Positions 18,278-47,846 of a stretch of 64,000 nt of DNA are shown here, piece by piece. The stretch is taken from assembly GCA_964453605.1 (NCBI GenBank), contig CAYVOI010000001.1:310029-374028 (forward strand), written 5' to 3'. The first letter of the stretch is position 1. Every line of letters begins with the position of its first letter. The notes under the pieces were generated by a model. The model saw only the letters and a list, made by a program, of their open reading frames with translations, did not search any database and was not told the origin of the DNA. Position numbers and translations under genes: made by a program. This DNA is from an uncultured Gammaproteobacteria bacterium (lineage in GTDB: Bacteria > Patescibacteriota > Patescibacteriia > Veblenbacterales > UBA10138).

Positions 18278-18422
18278 TGCACCAGGTTCGCTGCATGTGT
18301 CGTACTCATACATGAGGGCTCTTTAGTCAGCCCCTCTACCTTAGGGTGCTACCTCCGTGCCTTAGGGTATAATGTACATAAGGGTGCACCATTGTGCATC
18401 CTTATGTCGTACTAGGTTAGGT

Positions 18423-18833: not shown

Positions 18834-18842
18834 GCAAAATGT

Positions 18843-19352
18843 ATGGATACAGCAGCATTTTTTAGGTCAGTCTGGTTCACCCGCGCTCTCTATGGGCTGG
18901 GTGGCCTGATTGTGCTCCTCACTGTGTTCCAGCTCGGGGTGGTGGTAGGGTTTCACAAGGCAAGGTTTTCCTACCGTTGGGCAGAAAACTACCACCGTAC
19001 GTTCGGTGGCCCCCGCGCGGGCCTGTGGGGTGATGTAGAGGATCATGAGTTTATGGACAGCCATGGTTTGGTCGGTACGGTTATAAAAGTTGATGGGACC
19101 TCGGTAGTTGTGAAAGGCTCCGACGGTCTAGAGAAAGTTATTAGTACCACCCCTGCCACAACCCTGGAGCGCGGGCGACAAGTAGTGCAGCTTAGTGATC
19201 TTAAAGTCGACGATAAAATTGTGGTCCTAGGCTCGCCGCAAGATGACGGCTCGATTGCGGCTAAGTTCATTCGCATTTTTGATCAACTATTCGACCAGGC
19301 GCTGCCGCCACCTCCGCCGAGCGGGTTTCACTTCAAACCGTTGGGGTTTTAG
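18843..19352 (+). CDS. Membrane-anchored protein with a beta-rich domain paralogous to the N-domain of the 23099..23812 protein
   Basis: VIKVDGTSVVVKGSDGLEKV...DDKIVVLGSPQDDGSIAAKFIRI resembles KDDKSITVKMRDGSTKIVFF...GKQVTVMGMANSDGSVTAQSIQL. Confidence 0.4.
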   Translation: MDTAAFFRSVWFTRALYGLGGLIVLLTVFQLGVVVGFHKARFSYRWAENYHRTFGGPRAGLWGDVEDHEFMDSHGLVGTVIKVDGTSVVVKGSDGLEKVISTTPATTLERGRQVVQLSDLKVDDKIVVLGSPQDDGSIAAKFIRIFDQLFDQALPPPPPSGFHFKPLGF

Positions 19353-19373
19353 GACCAGCGGTACTGTACTTCT

Positions 19374-21134
19374 ATGAACATACTTACCCGTTTGTGGCAG
19401 CGTAAAGCTCTTGTGGGGCTTGTCACCGTGGTACTTGTTGGGGCAGGTTACTATGCTTATGCCCGTGGCAAAACTACCAGTGCCGCCCCGCGCTACGTTA
19501 CGGCTCAGGTTACGCGAGGTACATTGAGTGTTTCACTGAGTGGCACGGGGCAGGTAGCAGTTTCGAGCCAGCTTGACCTTAAGCCTAAGGCGTCTGGTGA
19601 CGTGGTTAAGGTGTTCGTTACCCAGGGGCAGAAGGTTACCGCTGGCCAGGTACTGATCCAGCTTAATACCCGAGACGCTGACAAGGCAATTCGCGATGCT
19701 CAAACTAACATTGAGTCGGCTAAGCTCGCTTTGCTCAAACTGCAGCAGCCGGCTGATGACCTCTCACTGCTCCAGGCTCAGAATGCTCTGGTGCAAGCTC
19801 AGGCGGGCAAGCAAAAAGCCACCGACGTCTTAGCTCAAGACTACGAGAGCGGGTTTAACACCGTAACCAGCACCTTCCTTAACCTGCCAACCATTATGGT
19901 GGGGCTACAAGATACGCTCTTGGGCACTTCCCTGGGCACCGCTGGGCAGACAAACAAAGATTACTACATCGACGCTCTTAAGCTGATTGATAACAAAGTC
20001 TACCAGTACGCTGATGATACCAACCAGAGCTACCAAGCAGCGCGTATGGTCTACGATGCCAATTTCCAGCACTACAAGGTAACTGACCGTTCGGCTCCAC
20101 CTGCCACCATCGAGGCGCTACTCACCGAAACGTACACCACTACGCAGGCCATAGCCCAAGCGGTAAAGGATGCTAACAACTTAATTCAGTTCTACAACGA
20201 CACACTTACCCAGCGGAGCCTAAAACCAAACCCCGGTGCTGCTACCTACCTTACAAACCTTACCACTTACGCTAGTCAAACTAACTCGGCGCTCACAAAT
20301 GTACTGAGTGCTAGAACAACACTCCAAACTGATAAAGACGCGTTAGTAGCTGACGACCAGTCGATTGCGGAAAAAACTGCTTCGCTCACGAAGCTCAAAG
20401 CCGGTACTGATCCACTGGACATTCAGTCACAGCAGCTCGCCATCACGCAGCGTGAAAACGCTCTACGTGATGCTGAAGAGGCGCTAGCGAACTACACTGT
20501 GCGGGCACCGTTCGGCGGTGTAGTGGCGGCCGTTACGACCAGAGTCGGGGACACGGTTTCTACCGGCACATCCTTAGGCACACTCATAACTACCGAACGC
20601 CTGGCCGATGTTACCCTGAACGAGGTAGACGTGGCTAAGGTAAAGCTGGGGCTGAAAGCGGTGTTGACGTTTGATGCTATACCAGACCTGAGCCTTAGCG
20701 GCCAGGTGGATGATATTGCGGCTTTAGGCACGGTGAGCCAAGGGGTGGTGTCGTACGATGTTAAAATTGGTTTTGATTCGCAAGACGACAGAATTAAAGA
20801 CGGCATGAGTGTGGCGGCGGCTATTATCACCGATGTTAAACAAGACGTGCTCATGGTGCCAAATGCGGCTGTGAAAACCCAAGGTACAGCCGGTTCCTAC
20901 GTGCAGGTGATGGTGAATGGCGCACCCGAGCGGAGGCCGGTGGAGGTCGGGGCTGCTAACGACACGGAGACCGAGGTGTCGGGGAATATTAGCGAAGGCG
21001 ACGAGGTGGTGACTCAGACTATTACCTCTACCACTACATCAAGCACCACGAACACTCAACAGCGCGGTGGCGTGGGTGGTGGCCTGTTTGGCGGTGGTAC
21101 GTTCCGTATAGGCACTGGCGGCCCTGGCCGCTAG
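19374..21134 (+). CDS. HlyD/MacA-family periplasmic adaptor (membrane fusion protein) with a long coiled-coil insert and Gly-rich tail
   Basis: N-terminal TM helix, biotinyl/lipoyl-like hairpin (VKVFVTQGQKVTAGQVLIQL), beta-barrel domain (YTVRAPFGGVVAAV), C-terminal GGVGGGLFGGG. Confidence 0.7.
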   Translation: MNILTRLWQRKALVGLVTVVLVGAGYYAYARGKTTSAAPRYVTAQVTRGTLSVSLSGTGQVAVSSQLDLKPKASGDVVKVFVTQGQKVTAGQVLIQLNTRDADKAIRDAQTNIESAKLALLKLQQPADDLSLLQAQNALVQAQAGKQKATDVLAQDYESGFNTVTSTFLNLPTIMVGLQDTLLGTSLGTAGQTNKDYYIDALKLIDNKVYQYADDTNQSYQAARMVYDANFQHYKVTDRSAPPATIEALLTETYTTTQAIAQAVKDANNLIQFYNDTLTQRSLKPNPGAATYLTNLTTYASQTNSALTNVLSARTTLQTDKDALVADDQSIAEKTASLTKLKAGTDPLDIQSQQLAITQRENALRDAEEALANYTVRAPFGGVVAAVTTRVGDTVSTGTSLGTLITTERLADVTLNEVDVAKVKLGLKAVLTFDAIPDLSLSGQVDDIAALGTVSQGVVSYDVKIGFDSQDDRIKDGMSVAAAIITDVKQDVLMVPNAAVKTQGTAGSYVQVMVNGAPERRPVEVGAANDTETEVSGNISEGDEVVTQTITSTTTSSTTNTQQRGGVGGGLFGGGTFRIGTGGPGR

Positions 21135-21150
21135 AGCTACTCCCCACACC

Positions 21151-21840
21151 ATGATTGAGTGCAAGAACATAACCAAGGTCTACCAGAGCGGGGGCACTGC
21201 TACCACAGTGCTTAAAGGTGTGTCGTTTACTGTTCGAGACGGCGAGTTTGTGGCTATCATGGGCCCTTCGGGCAGCGGTAAGAGCACCCTCATGCACATT
21301 TTAGGCGGGCTCGACACGCCAACGAGCGGTACCTACGTGCTCGATGACAAGGACGTGTCTACACTTTCGGACGACGATCTGGCGGAAGTGAGAAAGAACA
21401 GCATCGGGTTTGTGTTTCAAGCCTTTAACCTGCTCCCTCGCGCCAGCGTTTTACGGAACGTGAGCTTGCCGCTGGTCTACGCCAACATTCCCCGTGCCGA
21501 GCGCGAGCAGCGTGCCCGTGAGGCTCTGACACAGGCGGGTATGGAGGAGGAGCGGTTCCACCACCTTTCAAACCAGCTCTCCGGTGGGCAGATGCAACGT
21601 GTGGCAATAGCGCGGGCCTTGGTTAATAATCCAAAACTCGTGCTGGCTGATGAACCAACCGGTAACTTGGACACTAAGACTGGCGAGGTGGTGCTGAAAA
21701 CTTTTCAAGAGCTTAACGCCCAAGGCCACACCATTGTGCTCATTACCCACGAGCACGACGTAGCGAGCCACGCGCGGCGGATAGTTTCGATTCGCGATGG
21801 CAACATTGTAGACGACCAAATGGTTACCCAGCATCTATGA
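21151..21840 (+). CDS. ABC transporter ATP-binding protein (MacB/LolD type)
   Basis: Walker [10 protein letters not shown], signature [15 protein letters not shown], Walker [13 protein letters not shown]. Confidence 0.85.
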
Positions 21841-23060
21841 AGTTTGTCGATTTGCTAGAGGAAACTTACGCTGCTATCGCGGTCAATAAGGTGCGCTCTG
21901 GACTTACCATTTTGGGTATTGTGATAGGTATTGGCTCGGTTATCGCCATGGTGGCGATTGGTCAAGGTGCCCAAGGGTCTATTCAAGCCAGCATTCAGTC
22001 CATTGGTTCTAACCTCATTATTGTGGTGCCAGGGTTTCAGCGTGGGGTGGGGAGCCAGGTGAGGACCGGCCGCGGCGGCGCCACCACCTTGACCCAAGAC
22101 GATGCCGACGCTATCGCTGCCCAGGTCACGCTGGCTCGCGCGGTCGCGCCCGAGAACTCACGGCGGTACCAGGTGACCACGCGCGGCCAGAACACCAACA
22201 CCCAGGTGGTGGGGACCGTGCCCCAGTACCCCGAAGTTCGCAACGTTACGGTGGATAGTGGCTCGTTCATAACTCAGGAACAAGTAGTAAGTGGCGCCAA
22301 GGTAGCCGTGCTCGGGCCCACCACCGTGAGCGACCTGTTTGGTGAGGGGGCCGACCCGATTGGTGAAACCGTACGCATCAACCGTATCGATTTCCGGGTT
22401 ATTGGCGTGACGCGGGCTAAGGGCGGTAGTGGGTTTGCGAATCCTGACGACGTGGTATTTGTCCCGCTCACGACCGCCGAGCACTATCTGGCGGGTGACA
22501 GCTATGTCACCACTATAAGCGTCGAGGCACAGGACCAGGGCAGCATGAGCACTATTCAGCAGCAGATAACGGAGCTATTGCTTCAGCGTCACAAGATTTC
22601 AGACCCTACCCAAGCTGATTTCCAAGTGCTGAACCAGTCTGACATTGTGGCTGCTGCATCGAGTGCTACGGGCATCTTTACCATTCTGCTGGCGTCCATC
22701 GCCGGCATTAGCTTGCTGGTGGGGGGCATTGGCATTATGAACATGATGTTAACCACGGTAACCGAGCGCACGCGGGAGATCGGGCTCCGTAAGGCGATTG
22801 GCGCACACCGTGGCGACATCAGTACTCAGTTCTTGCTCGAGGCGGTGATGCTGACGCTGGTTGGCGGTTGTTTAGGTGTATGTTTGGGGTGGCTGTTGGC
22901 GTGGGGTGTAACCAAGTTTGCTGCCATAACCACAACCGTGTCGGCCAGTTCGGTGCTACTGGCGTTTGGTGTTTCGGCTGCTATTGGTATTGTGTTTGGG
23001 TACTACCCAGCGCGGCGAGCGGCACGCTTGAACCCAATTGAGGCACTCAGATACGAGTAG
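21837..23060 (+). CDS. ABC transporter permease (FtsX/MacB-type, with MacB periplasmic domain)
   Basis: N-terminal TM helix, large periplasmic domain, C-terminal FtsX 3-TM bundle. Overlaps the ATPase stop. Confidence 0.8.
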   Translation: MKFVDLLEETYAAIAVNKVRSGLTILGIVIGIGSVIAMVAIGQGAQGSIQASIQSIGSNLIIVVPGFQRGVGSQVRTGRGGATTLTQDDADAIAAQVTLARAVAPENSRRYQVTTRGQNTNTQVVGTVPQYPEVRNVTVDSGSFITQEQVVSGAKVAVLGPTTVSDLFGEGADPIGETVRINRIDFRVIGVTRAKGGSGFANPDDVVFVPLTTAEHYLAGDSYVTTISVEAQDQGSMSTIQQQITELLLQRHKISDPTQADFQVLNQSDIVAAASSATGIFTILLASIAGISLLVGGIGIMNMMLTTVTERTREIGLRKAIGAHRGDISTQFLLEAVMLTLVGGCLGVCLGWLLAWGVTKFAAITTTVSASSVLLAFGVSAAIGIVFGYYPARRAARLNPIEALRYE

Positions 23061-23098
23061 TGTAACTTTACTGTGCTTATTTTTTAGTTAGAGCACGT

Positions 23099-23812
23099 AT
23101 GAACAAAATGATACTAACTGCAGCCGTGGCTGCAGTGGTAGCAGGTGGTGGAGCTTTCTACGCTGGCATGCAGTACGCCAAAGCCCAAGCTCCAAGTAGA
23201 GGAGCCGGTCAGTTTCAACAGTTTGGTGGCGGTCAGGGTGGACGCCGAAACGGGAGCCCCAGCGCCGGTGGGTTTGTGGGTGGTGAAATTTTAAGCAAGG
23301 ACGACAAGAGCATCACGGTTAAAATGCGTGACGGCAGTACCAAGATAGTGTTTTTTTCAAGCTCCACCTCAATCGGGAAGGTGGCAGAGGGTACAGCCGC
23401 CGACCTCGCGGTGGGGAAGCAGGTTACGGTTATGGGTATGGCGAATAGCGACGGCAGTGTCACAGCCCAAAGTATTCAGCTCCGGCCTGCTATGCCCATG
23501 CCGCAGGCGAGTAGCGCGCCAACCACTACCCAAGCAGGCGTAAAACAGTTTACCGTGGTGGCGCAGAACTTTGCCTTCGCCCCAGGCGAAATTCGAGTAA
23601 AGAAAGGGGATACGGTTAAGCTTACGCTCCAGAACCAAGACGGCTTCCACGACCTGGTGATAGACGAGTTCAACGTGCGCACGCCGCGTATTGGCCAAGG
23701 GCAAACCGCTGACGTGCAGTTTGTGGCCGATAAAACCGGCACCTTCCAGTACTACTGCTCGGTCGCGAACCACCGGGCTATGGGCATGTGGGGTAACCTT
23801 GTGGTGGAGTAG
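23099..23812 (+). CDS. Membrane-anchored cupredoxin (type-1 copper, plastocyanin/amicyanin-like) with an N-terminal beta-domain
   Basis: C-terminal FHDLVIDEF ... YYCSVANHRAMGM supplies His, Cys, His and Met copper ligands. Confidence 0.65.
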   Translation: MNKMILTAAVAAVVAGGGAFYAGMQYAKAQAPSRGAGQFQQFGGGQGGRRNGSPSAGGFVGGEILSKDDKSITVKMRDGSTKIVFFSSSTSIGKVAEGTAADLAVGKQVTVMGMANSDGSVTAQSIQLRPAMPMPQASSAPTTTQAGVKQFTVVAQNFAFAPGEIRVKKGDTVKLTLQNQDGFHDLVIDEFNVRTPRIGQGQTADVQFVADKTGTFQYYCSVANHRAMGMWGNLVVE

Positions 23813-23928
23813 CTTGCTCGTGCAAGTTTGGCGAAGCGCGAAGCTTAGCCAAATTTTCCTGTGGATTACGTCTTTTTTTGAGTGGAGTATACTGATGGTA
23901 TCATTTTTAACCACTAAGGAGTCAACCT

Positions 23929-24717
23929 ATGATCAAGTTCCGTGTTATGAAGCGAGTTTTGGCAACCGGCGTGGTGGGGCTCATGAGCACCATTGTTGTG
24001 CCGTCAGCTTCGGCCAACCACTCGTGGAACGGTTACCACTGGGCGCGCCAGAGTAACCCCTTTACCGTAAAGCTCGGTGATAACGTGAGCAGCGGCTGGG
24101 ACAGCTACCTCACCACCGCCTCGTCGCAGTGGAGCCAGTCCGATGTGCTCGACACTACCGTCGTTACCGGCCAAGCCAAGGCCAACTGTCGGCCAACGAG
24201 TGGGCGGGTGGAAGTCTGCAACAAAGCTTACGGTAACAACGGGTGGTTGGGGATTGCACAAATCTGGGTGAGCGGTAGCCACATCACCCAGGGCACGGTG
24301 AAGATGAATGACACCTACTTTGCTAGCTCAAGCTACAACACACAGGGCTGGAAGAGCTTGGTGATGTGTCAGGAAATTGGCCACACTTTTGGGTTGGCGC
24401 ACCAGGATGAGGACTACAACAACCCGCCAATTGTACCGCACACCTGTATGGATTACTTTGTGCCTGGTACCAACGAAACCGTGGGCCCGAACCAGCATGA
24501 CTACGACGAGCTCGACGTTATTTACTCACACCTCGACAGCACCACAACTGTTGGTGCGGCGCTGCCGGGCAACGGTCAGCGCCTCGGCGTGGGGAACGAC
24601 ACGCCGGGCGAGTGGGGTAAAGCTGTGCGCCAAGACGCCAAGGGCCGGAACTCCCTCTACGAGCAGGACTTGGGTGGCGGCAACAAGGCGTTCACCTTCG
24701 TGGTTTGGGCAGAGTAG
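23929..24717 (+). CDS. Secreted protein with a degenerate zincin-like motif (QEIGHTFGLAH)
   Basis: Signal peptide. ExxHxxGxxH resembles metzincin HExxHxxGxxH, but the first His is replaced by Gln. Confidence 0.4.
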   Translation: MIKFRVMKRVLATGVVGLMSTIVVPSASANHSWNGYHWARQSNPFTVKLGDNVSSGWDSYLTTASSQWSQSDVLDTTVVTGQAKANCRPTSGRVEVCNKAYGNNGWLGIAQIWVSGSHITQGTVKMNDTYFASSSYNTQGWKSLVMCQEIGHTFGLAHQDEDYNNPPIVPHTCMDYFVPGTNETVGPNQHDYDELDVIYSHLDSTTTVGAALPGNGQRLGVGNDTPGEWGKAVRQDAKGRNSLYEQDLGGGNKAFTFVVWAE

Positions 24718-24792
24718 CGGATTGTGCTGCGGCGGGGACCTACGGTCCCCGCCGTTTACGTAGTGTGTCAGGTACAGCTACAATAGCTGTAT

Positions 24793-27405
24793 ATGGCTCC
24801 TGAACCCAAGGTAGGCCAAGGTGGCTTGCTCACTCAATTCCCGAGCCTGCAAGACGTAGCCCAGCTCACCCCCGAGCTCGCCGTCAAGGGCCTCGGCAGT
24901 AGTGCCTCAGGCCTCAGTTCCGCCCGAGCGCGGGAACGCTTGGCAACGTATGGCCCCAATACGATTGCGGCTGAGCGACAGACCAGCTGGTTTACTATGC
25001 TGCTTTCGAACCTCAGGGACCCGCTGAGCGGGCTGCTGCTGGTGTTAGCAGTTATTTCATACTTTACTGGTGACCAGCGTTCCACCGTGCTCATTGTGGT
25101 GATGTTGGTCCTGAGCGTAGGCCTCCGCTTCCTGCAAGAGCTTAAGGCCGACCACGCGGCAGAAAAGCTTAAAGCTATGGTGCGGACAACTGCTACGGTG
25201 GTACGGGGTGGTGCTGCGCTTGAGGTGCCTCTCCGCGCGCTGGTACCGGGGGACGTGGTGCAGCTTTCAGCTGGCGATATGGTCCCGGCCGACCTTAGGC
25301 TCATAGAGTCCAGGGATCTGTTCGTAAACCAAGCTACGCTGACTGGTGAGGCACTGCCAGTCGGAAAGCACGCGCCGGCTGTTACCGACAAGTCTTTAGC
25401 TCAGTTCGACATTCCCAACTTATGTTTCATGGGGACTGACGTAGAGAGCGGTACAGCTACAGCGCTGGTGGTGGCCACGGCAGGTGCCACCTACTTTGGT
25501 GGACTTTCCCTAAGTTTACAACGTCGGGACGAGGTTACCGACTTTGACCGCGGCGTGACTCGTTTCACCTGGCTCATGATCCGCTTTATTGCGGTCATGG
25601 TGCCACTGGTGTTCCTCATCAACTGGTTTGGCAAGGGTGACTGGGCCCAAGCCTTCCTCTTTGCCCTGGCTGTGGCGGTTGGGCTGACACCCGAGCTCCT
25701 GCCTATGATTGTGACGGTAAACCTGTCCAAGGGGGCGCTCAACATGTCGAAGCAGAAGGTGATTGTGAAGCGCCTCAACGCTATTCAAAACTTTGGCGCC
25801 ATGGATATTCTCTGCACCGATAAGACCGGCACGCTGACAGAAGGCAAGGTAACACTTATCAAACACGTCGATATCGAGGGCAAGGAGAACAGTGACGTCC
25901 TGACCTACGCCTACCTCAACAGCTTTTACCAAACGGGCTTACGGAACTTGCTTGACCAAGCTGTGCTAGCACACGACACAGCTCAAGCCCAGAGGGTTGA
26001 ACATAGCTACCAGAAGGTCGATGAAGTGCCGTTCGACTTTGTGCGCCGGCGGATGTCGGTAGTGGTGGAAGACGGCAAGGGTAAACACCTCTTGATCTGC
26101 AAAGGTGCGGTTGAGGAAGTGCTAGCCCAGTCCAACGCAGTTCAGGTTGCTGGGCGCACCTTGCCCCTAAGCCAGCTGCACCACCAGAGCAAACAGGACT
26201 TGGTGGGCAAGCTCAACGCCCAGGGGTTTCGTTTGATTGCGTTGGCGATTCGCGAGCTGCCACCTTCGAAGCGTGTCTACTCAGTCGCCGACGAGGTAAA
26301 CCTGACCCTGGTGGGGTTTCTAGCTTTCTTAGATCCAGCCAAGCCAACCGCTGCCCAGGCACTTAAAGATCTGTCACGCCATGGTGTGCAGGTTAAAGTG
26401 CTGACCGGTGACAATGAGGTGGTAACCCGCAAGCTCTGTAGTGAGGTGGGGCTGCCGATTACGCGCATACTTTTGGGCAGTGAGGTGGACAAATTCAGCG
26501 ACGCCGAACTTGAGCAGGCAGCCGAAGAGGCTACCGTGTTTGATAAACTTGAACCCGCGCATAAAGAGCGCGTGATACAGGCGCTTAAACGCCGTGGGCA
26601 CGTGGTAGGGTTTATGGGTGACGGCATCAACGATGCGCCGGCGCTTAAAGCCGCCGACGTTGGCATCTCCGTTGACTCGGCGGTCGACATTGCGAAAGAG
26701 TCGTCAGACATTATTCTGCTCGAGAAGAGCCTCTATGTACTCAAGGACGGGGTCAGGGAGGGCAGGAAGGTGTTCGGCAACATCGATAAGTACATCAAGA
26801 TGACAGCTAGTTCAAACTTTGGCAACATGCTGAGCGTGGTAGGGGCCAGCCTGTTCTTGCCGTTTTTACCTATGCTCCCCATTCAAGTTATCGCCAACAA
26901 CTTGCTCTACGACCTTTCCCAAGTAGCCATTCCTACTGACGGCGTTGATGTGGAGTACCTCAACCGCCCGCGGCCGTGGAACCTCAAGCACCTGGAACGT
27001 TTTATCTTAATTATGGGTTCGGTGAGTTCGGTGTTTGATTTCGCCACCTATGCTATTCTCATTTTCTTGTTTGGTGCTTGGACTGGCGCCCAAGCTTTGT
27101 TCCATACGGGTTGGTTCGTGGAATCGCTCCTCAGCCAAACGCTTATCATCCACATCCTCCGGACTAACCGTCTACCGTTCTTCCAGAGCCGAGCGAGCTG
27201 GCCCCTCACTATAACTACACTGGCCGCTGTGGCGGTAGGCGTGTACCTGCCCTTCTCCCCGCTGGCGCAAACGTTAAGCTTTGTGCCGCTGCCAGGGCGG
27301 TACTGGCTGTTCATGTTGGGGGTGCTGCTGCTCTACGCCGCCGCGGCCCAGCTGGTGAAGCGTTGGTTTGAGCGCTACGTTGAGGCAAAATCTCAACCTG
27401 TATAA
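24793..27405 (+). CDS. mgtA: P-type ATPase, Mg2+-importing MgtA-like (type IIIB)
   Basis: 870 aa. ICTDKTGTLT phosphorylation site, TGDN, GDGINDAPALK, 10-TM architecture, MgtA-like N-terminus. Confidence 0.8.
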   Translation: MAPEPKVGQGGLLTQFPSLQDVAQLTPELAVKGLGSSASGLSSARARERLATYGPNTIAAERQTSWFTMLLSNLRDPLSGLLLVLAVISYFTGDQRSTVLIVVMLVLSVGLRFLQELKADHAAEKLKAMVRTTATVVRGGAALEVPLRALVPGDVVQLSAGDMVPADLRLIESRDLFVNQATLTGEALPVGKHAPAVTDKSLAQFDIPNLCFMGTDVESGTATALVVATAGATYFGGLSLSLQRRDEVTDFDRGVTRFTWLMIRFIAVMVPLVFLINWFGKGDWAQAFLFALAVAVGLTPELLPMIVTVNLSKGALNMSKQKVIVKRLNAIQNFGAMDILCTDKTGTLTEGKVTLIKHVDIEGKENSDVLTYAYLNSFYQTGLRNLLDQAVLAHDTAQAQRVEHSYQKVDEVPFDFVRRRMSVVVEDGKGKHLLICKGAVEEVLAQSNAVQVAGRTLPLSQLHHQSKQDLVGKLNAQGFRLIALAIRELPPSKRVYSVADEVNLTLVGFLAFLDPAKPTAAQALKDLSRHGVQVKVLTGDNEVVTRKLCSEVGLPITRILLGSEVDKFSDAELEQAAEEATVFDKLEPAHKERVIQALKRRGHVVGFMGDGINDAPALKAADVGISVDSAVDIAKESSDIILLEKSLYVLKDGVREGRKVFGNIDKYIKMTASSNFGNMLSVVGASLFLPFLPMLPIQVIANNLLYDLSQVAIPTDGVDVEYLNRPRPWNLKHLERFILIMGSVSSVFDFATYAILIFLFGAWTGAQALFHTGWFVESLLSQTLIIHILRTNRLPFFQSRASWPLTITTLAAVAVGVYLPFSPLAQTLSFVPLPGRYWLFMLGVLLLYAAAAQLVKRWFERYVEAKSQPV

Positions 27406-27552
27406 GTCAGGTAAGCGCCGTCTTCACCCATTAGCAGAGTTAGGCTTAATGGTTGCTTCACGCTGGTCAGGAACAGTTTGACCTGTGGATTGTGCGGTTT
27501 TCTTAGGGTTTGCTATACTGAGGAGTACTAATTCGTTAACCAGCCACAACCT

Positions 27553-40807: not shown

Positions 40808-41698
40808 ATGCCTGAAAAGTCTATGGGAGCTGACTTGAGTGAGCAAATATACCAGGAGCATCGCGACGCTTCTTGGAAACTGGATTCTAGTAAACAGAAA
40901 AAAGAGTTTTTGGACGAATCAGACTTTGTTAGTAAGTTTATTGCGGCTATTAGTGGTAAAAGACGAGAAGTTGAACAGAGAGTACAAGAAAGTCGGAAAA
41001 CTTATGAGGAAAATTTACGCCTCGCGCAAGAGCATATAGACGAAATGCATGAGCAAGCAAATGAGTATGTAAAAAGTTATGAGGTTTACGAACGAGAGCT
41101 GCAAAGGCTTACACAAGAGCTTGGGGCACAGTATAGTGAACGAGTAGAGGCGCTTCCTTGGCCAGCTTCGACAGCTGATATCAATGGCTATATTGATGAG
41201 ATGGTGGGGCTGAAAGTCGAACGTGGGATATCTTTGGAAGATCGGGCGCGGATAGTCGCCGCTATTGATATTTTTAAGCCTAAAATGGATAACCCAGGTT
41301 TTGCTGGTGAATCTTTTGTGATTGGCGAAGGAACCGATAGCGTAGAAGTCGGAATTTATAACGGCTCCCGTTTTCCAAGGTGGGAACTAGGTCAAGATAA
41401 CATCGCATCGGCCTCTGAAGTAGCGCACAGCAAAGGCTGGAAGGACATTTTGGAGGTGTCAACAGCTGTTACCTATCCGAGGAGGTATGATTCTCCTAAG
41501 GACCCTTCTGTTGAGGCTGAAAAGAAAGTTTATATTGCCCTAAGTGATGAAACAGCTAACCTGCTAAAGCAAGCTGGGCCCGATAATCTGAATTCTAGCT
41601 CCACCTTAACTTCGAAATTTGGTCGAGGTCTAGACTTGAGCACGCTCCATAATAGCTTTAATGTCATTGAGCTAGAGCGGGTGCGACAGAACAATTAG
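40808..41698 (+). CDS. Hypothetical protein (296 aa), coiled-coil N-terminal half, in an AT-rich segment
   Basis: Visibly lower GC than flanking genes. AT-rich 120-nt upstream region. No recognisable motif. Confidence 0.45.
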   Translation: MPEKSMGADLSEQIYQEHRDASWKLDSSKQKKEFLDESDFVSKFIAAISGKRREVEQRVQESRKTYEENLRLAQEHIDEMHEQANEYVKSYEVYERELQRLTQELGAQYSERVEALPWPASTADINGYIDEMVGLKVERGISLEDRARIVAAIDIFKPKMDNPGFAGESFVIGEGTDSVEVGIYNGSRFPRWELGQDNIASASEVAHSKGWKDILEVSTAVTYPRRYDSPKDPSVEAEKKVYIALSDETANLLKQAGPDNLNSSSTLTSKFGRGLDLSTLHNSFNVIELERVRQNN

Positions 41699-41718: not shown

Positions 41719-42297
41719 ATGATACTCTCTGACCGTGACATCAAAGCAGCTCTCAAGGAGGGCAAGATCGGCGTGGAGCCGCTCTATGAGGGCGCTCTGC
41801 AGCCCGCCTCGGTGGATTTGCACCTCGACAAAAAGTTCCTCATTTTTCGGAACACCGAACACGCGTTCATAGACGTTAAGCAACCCATTGCTGACCTCAT
41901 GGAGGAGGTTGTCATTGCCGAGGACCGGCCGTTCATCATCCACCCTGGTGAGTTTGCGCTTGGGGTAACCGTTGAGAAGATAACCCTAGCTGACGATATG
42001 GTGGCCAGGCTCGAGGGCAAATCTTCCTTAGGTCGTATTGGTATCATCATCCACGCCACCGCCGGCTTTATTGACCCTGGAAATTCACTCAAGCCCACGC
42101 TCGAGCTCCACAACATTGGTAACTTGCCGGTGAAGCTCTACTACAACATGCCCATAGCGCAGATAGCTTTTATGCCGCTCTCGAGCCCTGCCGAGCACCC
42201 CTACGACAAGAGCCACAAGTACTTTGGCGCCTCAGAGCCGCAAGCCTCTAAGATGCACGAGAACTTTACCCCGCACCACCCAACTCCACGCACGTAA
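41719..42297 (+). CDS. dcd: dCTP deaminase
   Basis: MILSDRDIK...ASVDLHLD...IIHPGEFALGVT...EGKSSLGRIGI. Confidence 0.85.
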   Translation: MILSDRDIKAALKEGKIGVEPLYEGALQPASVDLHLDKKFLIFRNTEHAFIDVKQPIADLMEEVVIAEDRPFIIHPGEFALGVTVEKITLADDMVARLEGKSSLGRIGIIIHATAGFIDPGNSLKPTLELHNIGNLPVKLYYNMPIAQIAFMPLSSPAEHPYDKSHKYFGASEPQASKMHENFTPHHPTPRT

Positions 42298-42476
42298 GTG
42301 AGAACGGGTATGACCATATTGATAGTACCTAATCTTCAGGCGACCTTAGTCGTGTTAAGGGTTGGTGCTGGGTTTAAGGGCCAGAGTTAGCCTAACTCTG
42401 GTACTGAGCTTCCGGATATAAGCAGACCTACCACAGTGTTGTAGTAGGTCCGTTTCTGCTCGGGGAACCTCGGTTT

Positions 42477-42770
42477 TTAACCGTTCGCTGCTTCCATCAG
42501 TTCATTGGCATGAATGGGTGAGCCGTATCTGAACTGTGGTTCCTTTTGATGCTTGGGGCAGTACATATGGAACACGGTACGTGTGCCCGAGCCGGCGCAT
42601 GGCCCAGGACCATCTTCCCATATCGTGTGGGTTGCCTGCACCATGATAATGCCAGCGCCGGTTTTCTTACAAACCCATTTGTTCCTTTTATACACAGCAT
42701 GCCGCCCAAGCCACTCGCGTTCTTTTTTCACTATGGTAACTTGGCCAGGAGCAGTTTGTATGCCGCTCAT
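42477..42770 (-). CDS. Hypothetical small basic Cys/His-containing protein (97 aa)
   Basis: Only ORF in a 600-nt gap. Antisense to the flanking operon. Function unknown. Confidence 0.3.
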   Translation of the reverse strand: MSGIQTAPGQVTIVKKEREWLGRHAVYKRNKWVCKKTGAGIIMVQATHTIWEDGPGPCAGSGTRTVFHMYCPKHQKEPQFRYGSPIHANELMEAANG

Positions 42771-42902
42771 AGTAATCTCCTTGTTGGTTGTGGAATATTT
42801 ACCTCCCGTTTTTTGAATTTTTGTAAATCAACCTTAGCGCTGACCTGCCTGAAAGTCAATAGCGCCCCCTTGAGCTTTAGGGTGTAATTTTTTATACTAC
42901 CC

Positions 42903-43481
42903 ATGCCTATGCCCAAACGCAGGAACCCAAAACCCATGGTAGTCGTCTTTGTCGGTGAGAAGCTGGCAGGGAAAGAGGTGGCCTCTCACTACCTACAGCG
43001 GCGCCATGGTTTTGTGAGCTACCGCTTTTCTAAAATTTTGGTAGACATTCTAGACAGGCTCCACCTGCCCGTAAGCCGGGTGAATGAGGTGGCACTGGTG
43101 GGGGGCCTCAGGGAGCGGTTTGGTGGCGGGGTGTTGGCGCAGGTGATTGCCGCGGAAATTAAGATGCGTAAGCAGAAGAGGGTAGTGCTCGACGGTATGC
43201 GCCACCCCGCAGAGTTTGAGGCCTTAAAAAAGCTGCCAGGGTTTTTACTGGTCTACCTTACTGCGCCCCTAGAGCTCAGGTTCAAGCGCGCCAGGGCACG
43301 TGGGGAAAAGGTAGGGGAGCGTAACTTTACACTTGCCGAGTTCAAGCGTGAGGAGAGTCTGCCGACTGAGGTGTTTATCCGCGGTTTAGGGCGTAAGGCT
43401 AAGGTAAAGCTCGTGAACAGTAGCACACTGCCTGAGCTCTACCAGCAGATTGAAGACAAGGTAATTAAGCCTTACCTATGA
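42903..43481 (+). CDS. NMP-kinase-fold P-loop protein (adenylate/cytidylate-kinase-like; putative (d)NMP kinase)
   Basis: Atypical Walker A VVFVGEKLAGKEV (GxxxxGK-E, as in AK GxPGxGKGT). DG-R NMP-binding motif (VLDGMRHPAEF). LID-like LVYLTAPLELRFKRARARGE. Confidence 0.45.
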   Translation: MPMPKRRNPKPMVVVFVGEKLAGKEVASHYLQRRHGFVSYRFSKILVDILDRLHLPVSRVNEVALVGGLRERFGGGVLAQVIAAEIKMRKQKRVVLDGMRHPAEFEALKKLPGFLLVYLTAPLELRFKRARARGEKVGERNFTLAEFKREESLPTEVFIRGLGRKAKVKLVNSSTLPELYQQIEDKVIKPYL

Positions 43482-43903
43482 AGCTTGAGGTGAAAAAGTT
43501 AGACCCCAGGGCCAAGCTGCCTTCCTACGTGCACCCAGGGGACGCGGGGTTGGACTTTTTTGCGCTGGAGGACACCGTGGTTCGGGCAGGGGAGCGGCAA
43601 GCCGACATTCGCACTGGCGTGGCCATCGCTATACCCCAGGGTTACGTAGGGTTGTTTTGGGATAAGTCGGGCCTGGCTGCTAAGTACGGGCTTAAAGTTA
43701 TGGCGGGGGTTATAGATTCTGGCTACCGCGGCGAGCTTTTACTCACGCTCTTCAACACCAGTGATAAGGATTACCACTTTAAGGCAGGGGACAAAGTTAT
43801 GCAGCTTGTGGTGCAGCCCGTTGAACAGGCAGAAATTATGGAGGTGCAAGAGCTGTCTGAAACACCCCGCGGCTCGAGCGGGTTTGGGAGTACGGGGAAG
43901 TAG
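43478..43903 (+). CDS. dut: dUTP diphosphatase
   Basis: dUTPase motifs AGLDF, IDSGYRGEL, and C-terminal RGSSGFGSTG. Confidence 0.85.
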   Translation: MKLEVKKLDPRAKLPSYVHPGDAGLDFFALEDTVVRAGERQADIRTGVAIAIPQGYVGLFWDKSGLAAKYGLKVMAGVIDSGYRGELLLTLFNTSDKDYHFKAGDKVMQLVVQPVEQAEIMEVQELSETPRGSSGFGSTGK

Positions 43904-43967
43904 GTAAAATAAAGACGACCAGTTAGAATCAACTGGTCGTCTTTTTGTTGAGCGATGTCGTAGCGCG

Positions 43968-44684
43968 CTACCCGCCGTTTTTGCCCTTCAATAGGGCGAG
44001 CATTTTGGGGCGGTAGGGAGCGTAGAGCACCTTTATTGAAATGAACTCCTCAGCGTAGCAATCGAGTTCATCGTGGTGCAGGGGTAAGTCAGAGGCGTAC
44101 TTCTGGTGCCCGGCCTCAAGCTCTTCGAACATGTGCATAACGTAGCCGATGCGTTCCAGGGCGTTGAAGAACCTACCTTCACGTGTATTTTCATACTGGA
44201 TTTCGTACAGGGTTTGGTAGGCACTCACCACCGCACTCTTGTAGGGTTCCTCGAGGGGGAGCTGGCTCAGCCAGTGGCGGAAGCGCTTGCGCTCCAGCTC
44301 GTCGTAGTAGGCTTTCTTGTCACCCAGTTTTTCCGTCCAGGGTACATCGAAGTGTCCCTCGCCATTGTGGTTTGGTTCCCCCTCTTCACCTAGGTCGTGT
44401 ATACCCGCTGCGATGATGAGTGAAGCCATGTTCAGAGGTTCCCCAGAGCCAAACTGTGCTTCAATAAAGAGAGCAACTTCAGTTAGGCGCACCTGTTCAA
44501 ACAGGTGTTGGAGCACGTTCTGAACGCGGTAGCGTTCGTCAAGTTTGAACCTGCCCCACCGCTTGGTACGCTGGGCTTGCGCTGCGGCGTAGAGTATGTG
44601 CTGCTGTAAGGTAACGATTTGTTTGGATACTGGTATGGCATCTTCCGGTACAACTGCCGGCGCGGTATCTATTTTTTGCTCCAT
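43968..44684 (-). CDS. HD-domain phosphohydrolase (YfbR-like 5'-deoxynucleotidase candidate)
   Basis: His...HDLGE...D pattern (IAAGIHDLGEEGEP). Confidence 0.5.
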   Translation of the reverse strand: MEQKIDTAPAVVPEDAIPVSKQIVTLQQHILYAAAQAQRTKRWGRFKLDERYRVQNVLQHLFEQVRLTEVALFIEAQFGSGEPLNMASLIIAAGIHDLGEEGEPNHNGEGHFDVPWTEKLGDKKAYYDELERKRFRHWLSQLPLEEPYKSAVVSAYQTLYEIQYENTREGRFFNALERIGYVMHMFEELEAGHQKYASDLPLHHDELDCYAEEFISIKVLYAPYRPKMLALLKGKNGG

Positions 44685-44838
44685 GGCAATACCTCATGAT
44701 TGTTGGTTTTATAGTTGATTTGTTATTGTTGTTATATGGCGCTATAGTACTAGCGAGCGGTTTTTTGGTCAAGCTCTATCACCCTATGCAACAGTACCTA
44801 AGCTTAGTTCAGGAAATACTAGAAAAGGAGAGGTAACT

Positions 44839-45711
44839 ATGAAGGCTTACTTAGATATAGTCAGAAAGGTTTTGGAAACTGGTCAGTTGAAATCAACTCG
44901 CCAGGGTACCGATGCTTATACGATTGCTGGTGAGAAGTTTGAGCACGACATGGCCAACGGTTTTCCATTGTTGACAACGAAAAAAGTTCCGCTTCGGCTG
45001 GTGGCTTCAGAACTGGAATTTTTTATAAAAGGCATTACTGATAAAAAATGGTTACAAGATAGGAATAATCACATTTGGGATGAGTGGGCCAACCCCCGCC
45101 AGGCACCCTATGGTCATGACCAGGCTGCTAAGGAACGCATGCTTAATGAGCGCGACCTAGGCGCAGTGTATGGTTACCAGTGGCGTCATTTCAACTATCC
45201 CTACGAGAGCTATGGTACTGACTATGCTGGCAAGGGCTACGACCAGCTGCAAAAGGTTATAGATACGCTAAAATCAAACCCAAATGATCGGCGCATGATC
45301 GTTAGTGCCTGGAACCCGTTGATGCTCGACAGCATGGCGCTGCCGCCGTGCCACTATGGATTTCAGGTGACAGTGATTCGTGGTCGGTTGAATTTATTAT
45401 GGAATCAGCGCTCCGTTGATATTATATTGGGTTTGCCTTTTAATATCGCAAGCTACGCTTTGTTATTGCATTTACTAGCTAAAGAGACTGGGCTCCAAGA
45501 AGGAAAACTAATTGGGTTTTTGGCTGATATACATTTATTTCTTAATCACGTTGATGGGGCTAAAGAGCAATTATCTAGAGACCCGGATAAATATAAATTA
45601 CCCAAAATAGAAACCGAGAATTTCACCTCCATATTTAATTGGCAGTACACTGACAGTAAGCTGGTTGGCTACGAGAGCTATCCAGCTATTAAATTTGATA
45701 TCGCGGTTTAG
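44839..45711 (+). CDS. thyA: Thymidylate synthase (ThyA type)
   Basis: FPLLTTKKV, R..E..WF..G, active-site LPPCH, and SYALLLHLLA motifs. Confidence 0.9.
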   Translation: MKAYLDIVRKVLETGQLKSTRQGTDAYTIAGEKFEHDMANGFPLLTTKKVPLRLVASELEFFIKGITDKKWLQDRNNHIWDEWANPRQAPYGHDQAAKERMLNERDLGAVYGYQWRHFNYPYESYGTDYAGKGYDQLQKVIDTLKSNPNDRRMIVSAWNPLMLDSMALPPCHYGFQVTVIRGRLNLLWNQRSVDIILGLPFNIASYALLLHLLAKETGLQEGKLIGFLADIHLFLNHVDGAKEQLSRDPDKYKLPKIETENFTSIFNWQYTDSKLVGYESYPAIKFDIAV

Positions 45712-45713
45712 CT

Positions 45714-46238
45714 ATGGGTTTCGCAATTATCGCGGCGCTGGATAAAAACCGCGGCATAGGCCAGGGAGGTAAACTGCCCTGGAACCTGAGAGGCGATATG
45801 AAGCACTTTAAAGAGGTCACGGTAGGGGCCCAAGAGGCTACAGCAGGGCAGAACGCGGTTATTATGGGTCGGACCACTTGGGACTCAATACCGGCCCGTT
45901 TTAGGCCTCTGGAAGGCCGTATAAACGTAGTTTTAAGCCGTAAGCCCTTGGTGGAGCTCCCCCAGGGGGTTTTGCAGGCGGGGTCGCTTGATGAGGCCCT
46001 AGCCCAAACCAAGGCCCAAGGCGGCCGCGAGGTTTTTATTATAGGTGGGGCTAGTGTGTACGCTCAAGCTATAAACCACCCCGACTGCCAAACACTTTAC
46101 CTAACAGAGATCGAAAGTGAATTTCCGTGTGATACGTTTTTCCCCGAGGTTCCCGCTAACTTTCACCGCACCGAGACTGCGGACCCGGCGGCCGAGCAAG
46201 GGGTGAACTATAGATTTGTTACCTATAAGCGGAGGTAG
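45714..46238 (+). CDS. folA: Dihydrofolate reductase
   Basis: IIAALDKNRGIG..GKLPW, VIMGRTTWDSIP, FIIGGASVY. Confidence 0.85.
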   Translation: MGFAIIAALDKNRGIGQGGKLPWNLRGDMKHFKEVTVGAQEATAGQNAVIMGRTTWDSIPARFRPLEGRINVVLSRKPLVELPQGVLQAGSLDEALAQTKAQGGREVFIIGGASVYAQAINHPDCQTLYLTEIESEFPCDTFFPEVPANFHRTETADPAAEQGVNYRFVTYKRR

Positions 46239-46244
46239 ATTTTT

Positions 46245-46922
46245 ATGAAACAACGCGGCAGGTTTATTGTTATCGAAGGTACCGATGGCTCGGGCAAGGC
46301 CACGCAGGTTAAGCTGTTGGTGCGAGCGTTAAAAAAAGCTGGGTATAAAATTAAGTATGTTGACTTTCCGCAGTACGGTAAGCCGTCAGCCCGATTAGTT
46401 GAGCGGTACCTAAATGGCGCCATGGGACTAGCCAGCAGCATTAGCCCGTACGACGCGTCGCTGTTTTACGCCGTGGATAGGTTTGCCAGCGGCCACAAGC
46501 TGCGCCAGTGGTTTGCCCAAGGCTACACGGTGGTGGCGAACCGTTTTACCTGGAGCAATGCCGCCCACCAGGGCGGCAAGCTTAACTCACTGGCAGCCAG
46601 AAAAAAGTTTTGGAAGTGGCTCTTTCGCCTGGAGTACCACCTGCTCGATATCCCCTGGCCGAATATAACGGTCGTGCTGCACGTGCCCGCTGCCCAAGCC
46701 CAGCAGCTAGTTGATAAAAAAGGCCGGCGTGCCCACCTCGGCGGAGCTCGGCGCGACGCCCATGAGGCAGACCTCGCGCACCTTAAAGCTGCTGAGCAGG
46801 CTTACCTTACTCTAGCCAAGACACACCGGGCCCCGGTTATTGAATGTGTGGAGAAGGGACGGCTCTTGACCCCAGCCGAAATTCATAAAAAAGTACTCGC
46901 CGTAGTTCTGCGACGAATGTAG
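46245..46922 (+). CDS. tmk: Thymidylate kinase
   Basis: GRFIVIEGTDGSGKATQ P-loop, DRF..S motif, LID region. Confidence 0.85.
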   Translation: MKQRGRFIVIEGTDGSGKATQVKLLVRALKKAGYKIKYVDFPQYGKPSARLVERYLNGAMGLASSISPYDASLFYAVDRFASGHKLRQWFAQGYTVVANRFTWSNAAHQGGKLNSLAARKKFWKWLFRLEYHLLDIPWPNITVVLHVPAAQAQQLVDKKGRRAHLGGARRDAHEADLAHLKAAEQAYLTLAKTHRAPVIECVEKGRLLTPAEIHKKVLAVVLRRM

Positions 46923-47042
46923 CCACGCCTACACATAGGCTCTTGACAACTGCAGCAGTACGTGCCAAAGTTTGGAAAATTATCATTTCACAACAGATAA
47001 CGTTTCATTCAAATTATTCAAAACCACAAGAAAGGAGTGAGC

Positions 47043-47846
47043 GTGAAGAAAAAAGTATTGGTAGTAGGAGTCACCGGCGTCGGTGGTATGGCAGCGGCCG
47101 CCGCTGCCGCAGCCGCAGGCTACCGCGTAGTAGGAACACGGAAGAAAGCAGTCGACGCGTTCAGCAGGCCATGCCCCCATGTCGATGTACTGGTTGGCGG
47201 TGTGGACGTCACCACATCAAACTGGCTTGACAGCGTACTCTCAGCCGAGCCCGGGGTTTATGAGTTTGGGTTTCTGGCTTTTGCTCAAGGCGAGGTTGGG
47301 TTCCCCGCCGACGAGGCTACTCATGAGCAGCAGGCGCGAGCTTTGCGGGCTAGCCTCCAACCCCTGCTCGATATGGAAGCCAGTGGCCGTTTTAAAAACC
47401 TGGTTGGGTTTAGCTCGTTCCACGAGCTTGACATTTCTCAGCTGGTGTACGGCAGTATGGTTCAGGGCAAGGTTCAGATTGACCACTGGCCGCAAACTGC
47501 CACCAAGGCAGTGGGGCGGTACGTCATAAAATCCGGCGGCTTCGATAGTAAGTCGCTGCGGGGTGTGAAGCTAGCAACGTTCAGGCAGCTTAGCCGTCGT
47601 CAAGGAAATGTAGACGACCGGCTGGTGAAAGCGTTTGGTAACCCAGACGTAGCCACACTCGAGCAAATGCTCCGCCAGCGCCTCCTCATGGAGGAGAACG
47701 CGCGGTTTGGCAATACCAGGCTAACGACGGGTGATGATCTGGTTCCTGCCGTAGCGGCTGTGCTCAGGGGCGCCGCCGATGATGCTATTGGCCCCATTAC
47801 CTGTGTGGTCGCTGATGAGGTGTTTTACCTTGAGTGTTTGATATAA
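47043..47846 (+). CDS. NAD(P)-binding Rossmann-fold protein (atypical SDR/NmrA-like)
   Basis: GxTGxxG (VVGVTGVGG) at the N-terminus. GTG 47043 lies 6 nt after aaaggag; the track start at 47037 is too close to the RBS. Confidence 0.45.
   Translation: MKKKVLVVGVTGVGGMAAAAAAAAAGYRVVGTRKKAVDAFSRPCPHVDVLVGGVDVTTSNWLDSVLSAEPGVYEFGFLAFAQGEVGFPADEATHEQQARALRASLQPLLDMEASGRFKNLVGFSSFHELDISQLVYGSMVQGKVQIDHWPQTATKAVGRYVIKSGGFDSKSLRGVKLATFRQLSRRQGNVDDRLVKAFGNPDVATLEQMLRQRLLMEENARFGNTRLTTGDDLVPAVAAVLRGAADDAIGPITCVVADEVFYLECLI

Follow-up and report, generated by a model that had tools for sequence, protein, structure and literature searches.

We analysed 64,000 nucleotides of DNA (the window) from an uncultured member of the Patescibacteria that is deposited as a Gammaproteobacteria bacterium (GenBank assembly GCA_964453605.1, contig CAYVOI010000001.1, positions 310,029 to 374,028), and focused on a cluster of seven genes (41719-46922) that encodes enzymes of deoxythymidine triphosphate (dTTP) synthesis together with two further proteins, a predicted kinase of ribo- or deoxynucleoside monophosphates ((d)NMPs) and a predicted 5'-deoxynucleotidase with an HD phosphohydrolase fold. 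The cluster lies between rplK-rplA on one side and gatB on the other. A preliminary description, made from the letters of the sequence, had reported dcd, a P-loop protein, dut, a convergent HD gene, thyA, folA and tmk side by side, and all seven open reading frames (ORFs) were indeed found in this arrangement, along with a hairpin and a spacer with promoter-like sites:

41719-42297, plus strand: dcd, deoxycytidine triphosphate (dCTP) deaminase, dCTP to deoxyuridine triphosphate (dUTP); TIGR02274 equivalog, PF22769
42903-43481, plus strand: kinase gene, UPF0200-like protein with a nucleoside monophosphate (NMP) kinase fold, predicted (d)NMP kinase; PDB profile search, AlphaFold2 (AF2)/Foldseek
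43478-43903, plus strand: dut, trimeric dUTPase, dUTP to deoxyuridine monophosphate (dUMP) and pyrophosphate; TIGR00576, PF00692
43911-43944, no strand: hairpin with a 15-bp stem between the convergent dut and HD genes; terminator scan
43968-44684, minus strand: HD phosphohydrolase gene, divergent YfbR-like, predicted 5'-deoxynucleotidase; AF2/Foldseek, residue alignment
44685-44838, no strand: HD-thyA intergenic region with promoter-like sites in both orientations; promoter scan
44839-45711, plus strand: thyA, thymidylate synthase of canonical type, seemingly a low-GC xenologue; TIGR03284
45714-46238, plus strand: folA, dihydrofolate reductase (DHFR); PF00186, E 2.6e-42
46245-46922, plus strand: tmk, thymidylate kinase, thymidine monophosphate (dTMP) to thymidine diphosphate (dTDP); PF02223

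The five enzymes of the textbook pathway, Dcd, Dut, ThyA, DHFR and Tmk, all reach curated family cut-offs (TIGR02274, TIGR00576, TIGR03284, PF00186 and PF02223, respectively), and the preliminary description was thus right that a route from dCTP through dUTP, dUMP and dTMP to dTDP is encoded in one place. Dcd scored 194 bits against a cut-off of 92.8 (PF22769, E 2e-43), Dut 141.8 bits against 102.55 (PF00692, E 3e-28), ThyA 289 bits against 108, FolA 144.7 bits against 25, and Tmk 66.6 bits against 27. Tmk stays under the NCBIfam equivalog cut-offs (TIGR00041, 71 bits against 83.25; NF005923, 116 bits) and carries the P-loop EGTDGSGKAT and a DRF motif. ThyA shares 41% identity with its E. coli counterpart (BLASTP) and keeps both the catalytic Cys (PCH) and the dUMP-specifying Asn (GLPFNIASY), with the equivalents of E. 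coli C146, R166, D169 and N177 aligned and a Phe at the position of E. coli Y209. Judged from these residues, ThyA is a canonical, dUMP-specific enzyme that shows no sign of hydroxymethylase-type or modified-base chemistry.

We found the cluster to be a conserved part of patescibacterial chromosomes. The order nusG-L11-L1-dcd-kinase-dut-(slot)-thyA-folA-tmk-gatB, where the slot denotes the variable position between dut and thyA, is repeated in ~20 distinct loci of other Patescibacteria (L001, L002/L004/L024, L005-L019, L023 and L025), a recurrence which implies that the co-location of the thymidylate genes is not due to chance. The named homologues all come from Patescibacteria, also known as the candidate phyla radiation (CPR), namely from Kerfeldbacteria, Veblenbacteria and the 'Parcubacteria group'. 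Six of the seven genes (dcd, kinase, dut, HD, folA and tmk) have a genome-typical GC content of 0.54-0.56 and a GC content at third codon positions (GC3) of 0.58-0.69, and the remaining window is filled with housekeeping genes such as tRNAs, ScpAB, TIM, aldolase, DnaE, ThrRS, MiaA, GatB, FtsW and metal-transport genes. The conserved order beside ribosomal-protein genes and the genome-typical composition together indicate that the cluster is vertically inherited and serves housekeeping, rather than being a phage-like island. Overall, we read it as a housekeeping dTTP supra-operon of a Patescibacteria chromosome that includes a (d)NMP kinase and an accessory deoxynucleoside monophosphate (dNMP) nucleotidase, and we put the probability of this reading at roughly 70%.

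The preliminary description had instead likened the arrangement to that of large phages and had raised the idea of non-canonical nucleotide handling. T4-like phages do encode analogous enzyme sets, and the bacterial thyA-folA and T4 td-frd/cd/1/56 sets follow the same logic of deaminase, dUTPase, thymidylate synthase, DHFR and dNMP kinase. A phage-derived or mobile nucleotide island, possibly devoted to a modified DNA base, would also fit the viral relatives of the kinase, the low-GC and apparently horizontally replaced thyA, and two nearby singleton ORFs that are of low GC or inserted (unk296 and orf97, see below). Unlike the T4 set, however, the window genes lie side by side in a cellular chromosome, next to genes for ribosomal proteins, and they encode a host-type Tmk and a ThyA of canonical dUMP chemistry that has the dUMP-specific Asn. 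Neither integrase nor structural genes nor base-modifying genes of the hydroxymethylase or glycosyltransferase types were found in the region by Pfam and PHROGs scans, and the PADLOC matches were limited to a weak one to the kinase domain and a weak one to LmuB (E 0.0024), the latter on the neighbouring unk296. Given the synteny and composition, we rejected the island, which we regard as very improbable; the likeness to phages thus gave way to a vertically conserved chromosomal block shared across a bacterial lineage, and the suggestion of non-canonical nucleotides found no support in either the ThyA residues or the gene content.

Within this conserved order, individual genes appear to have been exchanged in place. 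The GC content of thyA is 0.438, compared to ~0.55 in the adjacent genes, and its product is 87-89% identical (76-80% at the nucleotide level) to the ThyA proteins of two low-GC relatives (L005 and L016) but only 35-42% identical to those in the other syntenic loci, which looks like an in-place replacement by a xenologue. Dcd is 83-92% identical in most syntenic loci; two classes of dcd could be distinguished relative to the window Dcd, at 73-92% or 45-48% identity (L008, L012, L013, L015 and L017 versus the other loci), which suggests a second in-situ gene replacement within the cluster. Between rplA and dcd, a 296-aa ORF (unk296, 40808-41698, plus strand) has no significant family match, stands alone in its protein cluster and has no counterpart in any syntenic relative, with a GC of 0.444 and a GC3 of 0.40 versus ~0.55 and 0.65 in its neighbours; it is probably a recent insertion. 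Four of the loci with a typical patescibacterial nusG-L11-L1-dcd-kinase-dut cluster (L011, L012, L016 and L018) stem from metagenome-assembled genomes named 'uncultured Gammaproteobacteria bacterium', labels that are probably wrong.

The reading frames of the kinase and dut overlap by 4 bp, while thyA and folA are separated by 2 bp and folA and tmk by 6 bp. From its position between dut and the HD gene, the hairpin likely acts as a bidirectional terminator, and the HD-thyA spacer holds promoter-like sites on the minus strand (44772-44744, TTGACC-17-TACTAT) and on the plus strand (44720-44748), both being consensus matches only. The dcd-kinase spacer (42298-42902), which in most relatives spans a few tens of bp, measures 605 bp here and contains a minus-strand ORF of 97 aa (orf97, 42477-42770) that includes Cys and is preceded by a strong Shine-Dalgarno sequence (AAGGAGATTACT-ATG). 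This ORF forms a singleton protein cluster and had no family match in Pfam, PHROGs, NCBIfam or PADLOC, and an Rfam scan of the 605-bp spacer likewise gave no match. A spacer of this length with an ORF on the opposite strand implies that the thymidylate cluster consists of several transcription units, hence a supra-operon and not a single operon. A further promoter-like site (TTGAGC-17-TATACT, window 42870-42903) ends 4 nt upstream of the kinase ATG, which lacks a Shine-Dalgarno sequence, and the kinase transcript may be leaderless. In the public annotation the kinase starts 11 codons further downstream (181 aa instead of the 192 aa considered here); its basic N-terminus is nonetheless conserved among homologues.

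To place the kinase, we built a profile from 29 homologues and searched it against the PDB with hmmsearch. The best match was the archaeal protein SSO1041 of the UPF0200 family (3lw7/3h0k, an 'adenylate kinase-related protein'), which aligned over its full length (profile 11-184, chain 3-173) with 72 bits and E 5.6e-19. Adenylate and UMP/CMP kinases followed at ~24 bits (E ~1e-4), T4 gp1 (1dek) matched over 38 residues of the P-loop only (E 0.018), and bacterial cytidylate kinase (CMK) gave no match in this search. For the window protein itself, AAA_18 was the only Pfam match, and none of PF00406, PF02224, PF01121 and PF21448 was hit at E <= 0.01, nor was any NCBIfam model for adenylate kinase, cytidylate kinase or dephospho-CoA kinase (CoaE); some relatives do match PF21448 over short stretches (26-32 bits). 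The preliminary description had named a clear paralogy to adenylate or cytidylate kinase as grounds against its reading; the lack of PF00406 and PF02224 matches together with the ~24 bits against 72 bits for UPF0200 shows that the kinase is a paralogue of neither.

Structure prediction agreed with the profile search. In a Foldseek search, the AF2 model of the kinase (mean confidence, pLDDT, 91.8) returned 3lw7/3h0k at ranks 1-3 with template modelling scores normalised to the target (TMt) of 0.79-0.82 (top 3lw7, TM 0.82), followed by AK1 and UMP/CMP kinases, with bacterial CMK at rank 41 (TM 0.43). The 3lw7 entry is the SSO1041 structure crystallised with AMP. The two proteins have the same length, a DG-x-R motif and a similar arginine-rich lid; they differ in that the window kinase is bacterial, from Patescibacteria, and has a GKE Walker A where the archaeal protein has GKS. 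Nine positions do not vary across the 29 sequences (G18, G23, K24, R59, R70, R100, R126, R129 and R133), and D97 and G98 are conserved in at least 90% of them. Viewed with the PDB profile alignment, the P-loop lysine K24, R59, R70, the DGxR motif at positions 97-100 and the three arginines of the lid (R126, R129 and R133) make up, as we read them, the pattern of an NMP kinase. The Walker A motif itself, GEKLAGKE, reads as the preliminary description had it, and its label 'adenylate-kinase-style' is loosely right: the adenylate-kinase-like GKGT occurs in the wider family (51 sequences), along with GKDT (23) and GK[ST]T (18), whereas 51 of 53 sequences of the window clade have GKE followed by a hydrophobic residue (GKE[VLMI]). 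By sequence and model, the kinase belongs with archaeal UPF0200/SSO1041, as a bacterial member of a UPF0200-like family, and is predicted to be an active phosphotransferase of the NMP-kinase fold.

The family is large: of 1.84 billion representative proteins, 9,662 are related to the kinase at E <= 1e-3, with ~3,700 of them reaching E <= 1e-10 and 363 reaching E <= 1e-30. Its members carry public labels such as hypothetical, 'AAA ATPase' or dephospho-CoA kinase. A literature search found no papers on UPF0200 or SSO1041. The last of these labels would make the kinase a CoaE, as close homologues are indeed named ('Dephospho-CoA kinase, CoaE') in UniRef, JGI and some GenBank records, and CoaE chains do match the profile weakly in the P-loop region. 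These matches are partial, covering residues 4-52 or 114-184 at E 4e-4 to 0.05 (2grj, E 4e-4, 4-52), while UPF0200 and NMP kinases match best over the full length. Neither PF01121 nor an NCBIfam CoaE model was matched, and the gene context is deoxynucleotide metabolism in all loci examined and never CoA genes. The DGxR motif and the arginine-rich lid are, as we understand them, features of NMP kinases. Hence the dephospho-CoA kinase label is probably wrong, and we give a CoaE function hardly any chance.

Among viral proteins, the kinase resembles those annotated as phage dNMP kinases, in line with the (d)NMP-kinase likeness seen in the preliminary description. The PHROGs family phrog_139, named 'dNMP kinase', was matched over the whole length of the protein (E 9.9e-9, residues 5-187 versus profile 77-260 of 342), noting that PHROGs comes without curated cut-offs and that the family name is an annotation and not an assay. 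Sixteen phage homologues were found, most of them annotated as dNMP kinase, with ~25% identity to proteins of Paenibacillus, Bacillus and Staphylococcus phages, and one of them has a dUTPase and thyX at a distance of 2-3 kb. A comparison with viral structures (BFVD) yielded best named fold matches that are mostly labelled dNMP kinase as well. With the phage and giant-virus dNMP kinases (phrog_139; T4 gp1, 1dek, PF21448) the window kinase shares the NMP-kinase fold and an acidic residue after the Walker lysine, which many members of the kinase family show as GKDT, but its gene, unlike theirs, sits on a bacterial chromosome and is vertically conserved.

Gene neighbourhoods linked the kinase to thymidylate synthesis well beyond the window clade. 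We read the context of seven kinase members outside this clade, and all seven adjoin or cluster with thymidylate genes (n=7):

L029: L1-...-dCMP deaminase-kinase-thyA-folA-gatB
L030: dCMP deaminase-kinase-...-dut-...-thyA-folA
L031: dCMP deaminase-kinase
L028: kinase-thyA
L032: folA-kinA-kinB-gatB
L033/L034: L1-dcd-dut-kinA-kinB-tmk-thyX
L027 (P0071): kinase-dUTPase fusion of 376 aa, from one 1.3-kb contig of SRR22387865

The linkage persists when Dcd is swapped for a zinc-dependent deaminase of deoxycytidine monophosphate (dCMP) and when ThyA/FolA is swapped for ThyX, which makes it strong context evidence for a role in deoxypyrimidine or thymidylate metabolism. Since the constant partners make or use deoxycytidine (dC) or deoxyuridine (dU) nucleotides, a deoxypyrimidine kinase step would fit both the Dcd and the dCMP-deaminase contexts. 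That the kinase is specific for deoxypyrimidines is nonetheless a tentative view, with its substrate deduced from context, and we hold it at somewhat under even odds. In L033, the ThyX (Thy1) encoded at 7849-9564 in the dcd-dut-kinA-kinB-tmk-thyX cluster has 571 aa, about twice the usual length.

A broad-specificity dNMP kinase, as in phage T5, would instead act on every dNMP scavenged from degraded DNA and serve the general salvage of deoxynucleoside triphosphates (dNTPs) in an organism that makes little de novo. CPR bacteria are generally described as salvage-dependent, and the likeness in sequence and fold to proteins annotated as viral dNMP kinases agrees with such a role, as do the tandem paralogues (L032 and L033) and the kinase-kinase tandem fusions of ~380-395 aa among the family representatives (P0107, P0115 and P0135), which suggest divided specificities. 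Yet dC-nucleotide deaminases, dUTPase and thymidylate synthases are the constant neighbours of the kinase, among which there is no purine gene, and the separate tmk within the cluster argues against full breadth, so that we consider a broad dNMP kinase rather unlikely.

A relation to defence systems was also considered. The defensive dCTP deaminase is a fusion of a kinase domain with a zinc deaminase domain, both of which are needed for defence (bioRxiv 10.1101/2021.04.26.441389), and the PADLOC 'dCTPase' model matched the window kinase weakly in its kinase portion (21.5 bits, E 2e-5). The kinase relatives that stand directly beside zinc dCMP-type deaminases mirror the fused architecture of Tal et al. 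The window kinase, by contrast, is unfused, its neighbouring deaminase is of the trimeric Dcd type with no PADLOC match for dcd, and the context is one of housekeeping. We take the match to reflect shared ancestry of the domain pairing, not evidence of defence here, and the defence-system reading was rejected because the PADLOC match is weak and confined to the kinase domain and because the context is housekeeping.

The second additional enzyme, the 238-aa HD protein, was nearly invisible to sequence searches. A homology search found only eight relatives and a metagenome scan four loci, which points to a subfamily that is rare or poorly sampled; phmmer against the PDB returned noise only, and the sole match of a profile search against the PDB was OxsA (E 0.01). 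Structure prediction was therefore needed. The AF2 model (pLDDT 85.6) had the E. coli YfbR structures 2paq/2par/2pau as top Foldseek matches (E 2.5e-4 to 9e-4, TMt 0.77-0.81), followed by OxsA, lin2634 and HDDC2, with DatZ much weaker (E 0.17). The link to the YfbR-like Pfam family PF12917 is transitive, as it is carried by homologues and not by the window protein: P0057, P0060 and P0062 have precomputed PF12917 matches, a homologue in L026 with 28% identity reaches 60 bits, and the NCBI name of P0060 is 'YfbR-like 5'-deoxynucleotidase'.

Residue by residue, the HD protein aligns with E. coli YfbR at R42-W43 (R18-W19), H60 (H33), H96-D97 (H68-D69), E100 (E72) and E177 (D137), all of which are invariant among the HD homologues. 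As hhalign of the HD profile against the single YfbR sequence aligned the N-terminal motifs at a low probability (11.7%), the assignment draws on the Foldseek result and on a MAFFT alignment. In YfbR, D77 contacts the sugar 3'-OH, while R18-W19 reportedly provide phosphate binding and deoxyribose selectivity and E72 is said to be catalytic, roles ascribed to the work of Zimmerman and colleagues in 2008 (see also PMC5098729). With E. coli YfbR/HDDC2 (PF12917; 2paq, 4dmb) and OxsA (5tk6), the protein shares the all-helical HD fold (TMt 0.8) and, with the former, the R-W motif, the His, the His-Asp pair and the catalytic Glu; it differs from YfbR/HDDC2 in its ~15% identity, its ~40 additional residues, an insertion of ~10-20 residues after HDxGE and the fixed position of its gene within a thymidylate cluster. 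Sequence and model together make it most likely a divergent YfbR-type HD phosphohydrolase with a predicted 5'-deoxynucleotidase activity, and the suggestion of a dNMP nucleotidase in the preliminary description thus gained the backing of both the best fold match and the aligned key residues.

The occupancy of the slot between dut and thyA pointed in the same direction. An HD homologue occupies the slot on the minus strand in the window and in L001, L002/L004/L024, L007, L013, L023 and L025, whereas L005, L006, L009, L011, L014 and L016 have a nucleoside phosphorylase (PNP_UDP_1) on the minus strand upstream of thyA, which in five of these six loci is the sole gene between dut and thyA. In L008, L015 and L019, dut and thyA are so close together that no gene fits between them. 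This alternation, together with the empty slots, indicates that the slot enzymes are interchangeable at the level of dNMPs and deoxynucleosides, and accessory rather than essential.

An HD protein that acts on (d)NTPs or nucleoside diphosphates ((d)NDPs) like OxsA or DatZ, trimming a pool such as deoxyuridine diphosphate (dUDP)/dUTP or dCTP, is the alternative to a monophosphatase. OxsA ties with YfbR in Foldseek besides being the only PDB profile match, DatZ appears in the list, the loop around YfbR D77 is remodelled by an insertion, a Glu serves as the final metal ligand, and one distant homologue (L026) lies near a MazG pyrophosphohydrolase. On the other hand, the HD protein has an Arg-Trp pair, a catalytic Glu and metal ligands of the YfbR type. 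Its slot is filled in other loci by nucleoside phosphorylases, whose reaction directly follows that of a monophosphatase, and the characterised T. brucei YfbR homologue is inactive on diphosphates (PMC5098729). YfbR-type enzymes act on dCMP, dUMP and dTMP and are part of pyrimidine deoxynucleotide metabolism (PMC5098729); in both E. coli and T. brucei they help to supply dUMP/dTMP, and E. coli YfbR is annotated as a dCMP phosphohydrolase. We thus deem a tri- or diphosphate hydrolase possible but unlikely.

For the cluster as a housekeeping dTTP supra-operon with its two accompanying enzymes, we envisage the following pathway. By family membership, Dcd turns dCTP into dUTP and Dut turns dUTP into dUMP, after which ThyA, with FolA recycling the folate, yields dTMP and Tmk phosphorylates dTMP to dTDP. 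The kinase, translationally coupled to dut, may interconvert dCMP/dUMP and the corresponding diphosphates (dCDP/dUDP), and would thereby channel salvaged dCMP to Dcd or, in reverse, supply dCMP or dUMP. As an overflow or salvage branch, the metal-dependent HD 5'-deoxynucleotidase might cleave dNMPs to deoxynucleoside and inorganic phosphate. Among the 50 scanned ORFs of the 64-kb window, and for this window only, no ribonucleotide reductase, ndk, cmk or adk was present.

Several observations weigh against this picture. The route from dCTP to dTDP needs no further NMP kinase, and a role for the kinase is read from context only. No curated cut-off of a specific family is reached by the window kinase (there is no PF21448 match), and its only NCBIfam match, the archaeal 'hypothetical protein' model PRK08356, scored 53.3 bits against a cut-off of 189, which marks the kinase group as a sister family and not an equivalog. 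The 'dNMP kinase' names of the phage proteins rest on homology annotation. The Ser/Thr that usually follows the Walker lysine is missing in the window clade, which could mean an altered chemistry or a non-catalytic role, and the kinase-dUTPase fusion P0071 could be an assembly artefact. For the HD protein, PF12917 scored 17.3 bits, below the cut-off of 25.9, and OxsA, an enzyme that cleaves tri-, di- and monophosphates, matches its structure as well as YfbR does. Its last metal ligand is Glu (E177) in place of Asp (YfbR D137), and the column of YfbR D77 is not conserved in the HD clade and is ambiguous owing to the loop insertion after HDxGE, with an invariant D113 beyond the insertion.

Other features of the window and of the syntenic loci lie outside these questions. 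Between tmk and gatB, a 269-aa ORF (47037-47846, plus strand) has an Ala-rich, Rossmann-like N-terminus and weak oxidoreductase matches, with a detectable homologue at the same position solely in L008 (31% identity). L014 carries three additional genes (318, 372 and 336 aa) between the kinase and dut at 6562-9602, and L002 a tandem pair of 100-aa GIY-YIG genes between secE and nusG at 4317-4932. Further upstream in the window (~8500-27500) is a metal and thiol-redox run that encodes DsbA-like, HMBD/MauE, DsbD and AhpC/thioredoxin proteins and a ZIP transporter, as well as an ECF-type sigma factor, HlyD/MacB-type efflux components, a cupredoxin protein and a P-type cation ATPase.

The cluster indicates neither new chemistry nor modified DNA, as its enzymes come from known superfamilies and the pathway is a textbook one. 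What appears to be undescribed is the constant coupling, throughout Patescibacteria, of a UPF0200-like kinase to thymidylate genes, and likewise the slot that varies between nucleotidase and phosphorylase; a literature search found papers on neither and nothing relevant for thymidylate clusters of Patescibacteria or CPR bacteria. Going further, the UPF0200-like kinases of Patescibacteria might be dCMP/dUMP kinases that act as a reversible valve between mono- and diphosphates, coupled physically or translationally to dUTPase and dC-nucleotide deaminases, that might replace Cmk and whose GKE Walker A would mark a distinct solution for Mg and phosphate binding, a proposal which we regard as doubtful in this full form. 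If the dCMP/dUMP kinase assignment were true, it would provide a functional lead for archaeal UPF0200. The linkage of the kinase offers a concrete and cheaply testable hypothesis for a large family that has a solved structure (SSO1041) and no assigned function, it bears on the balance of DNA precursors in ultra-small, salvage-dependent CPR bacteria, and it would correct the annotation in thousands of genomes.

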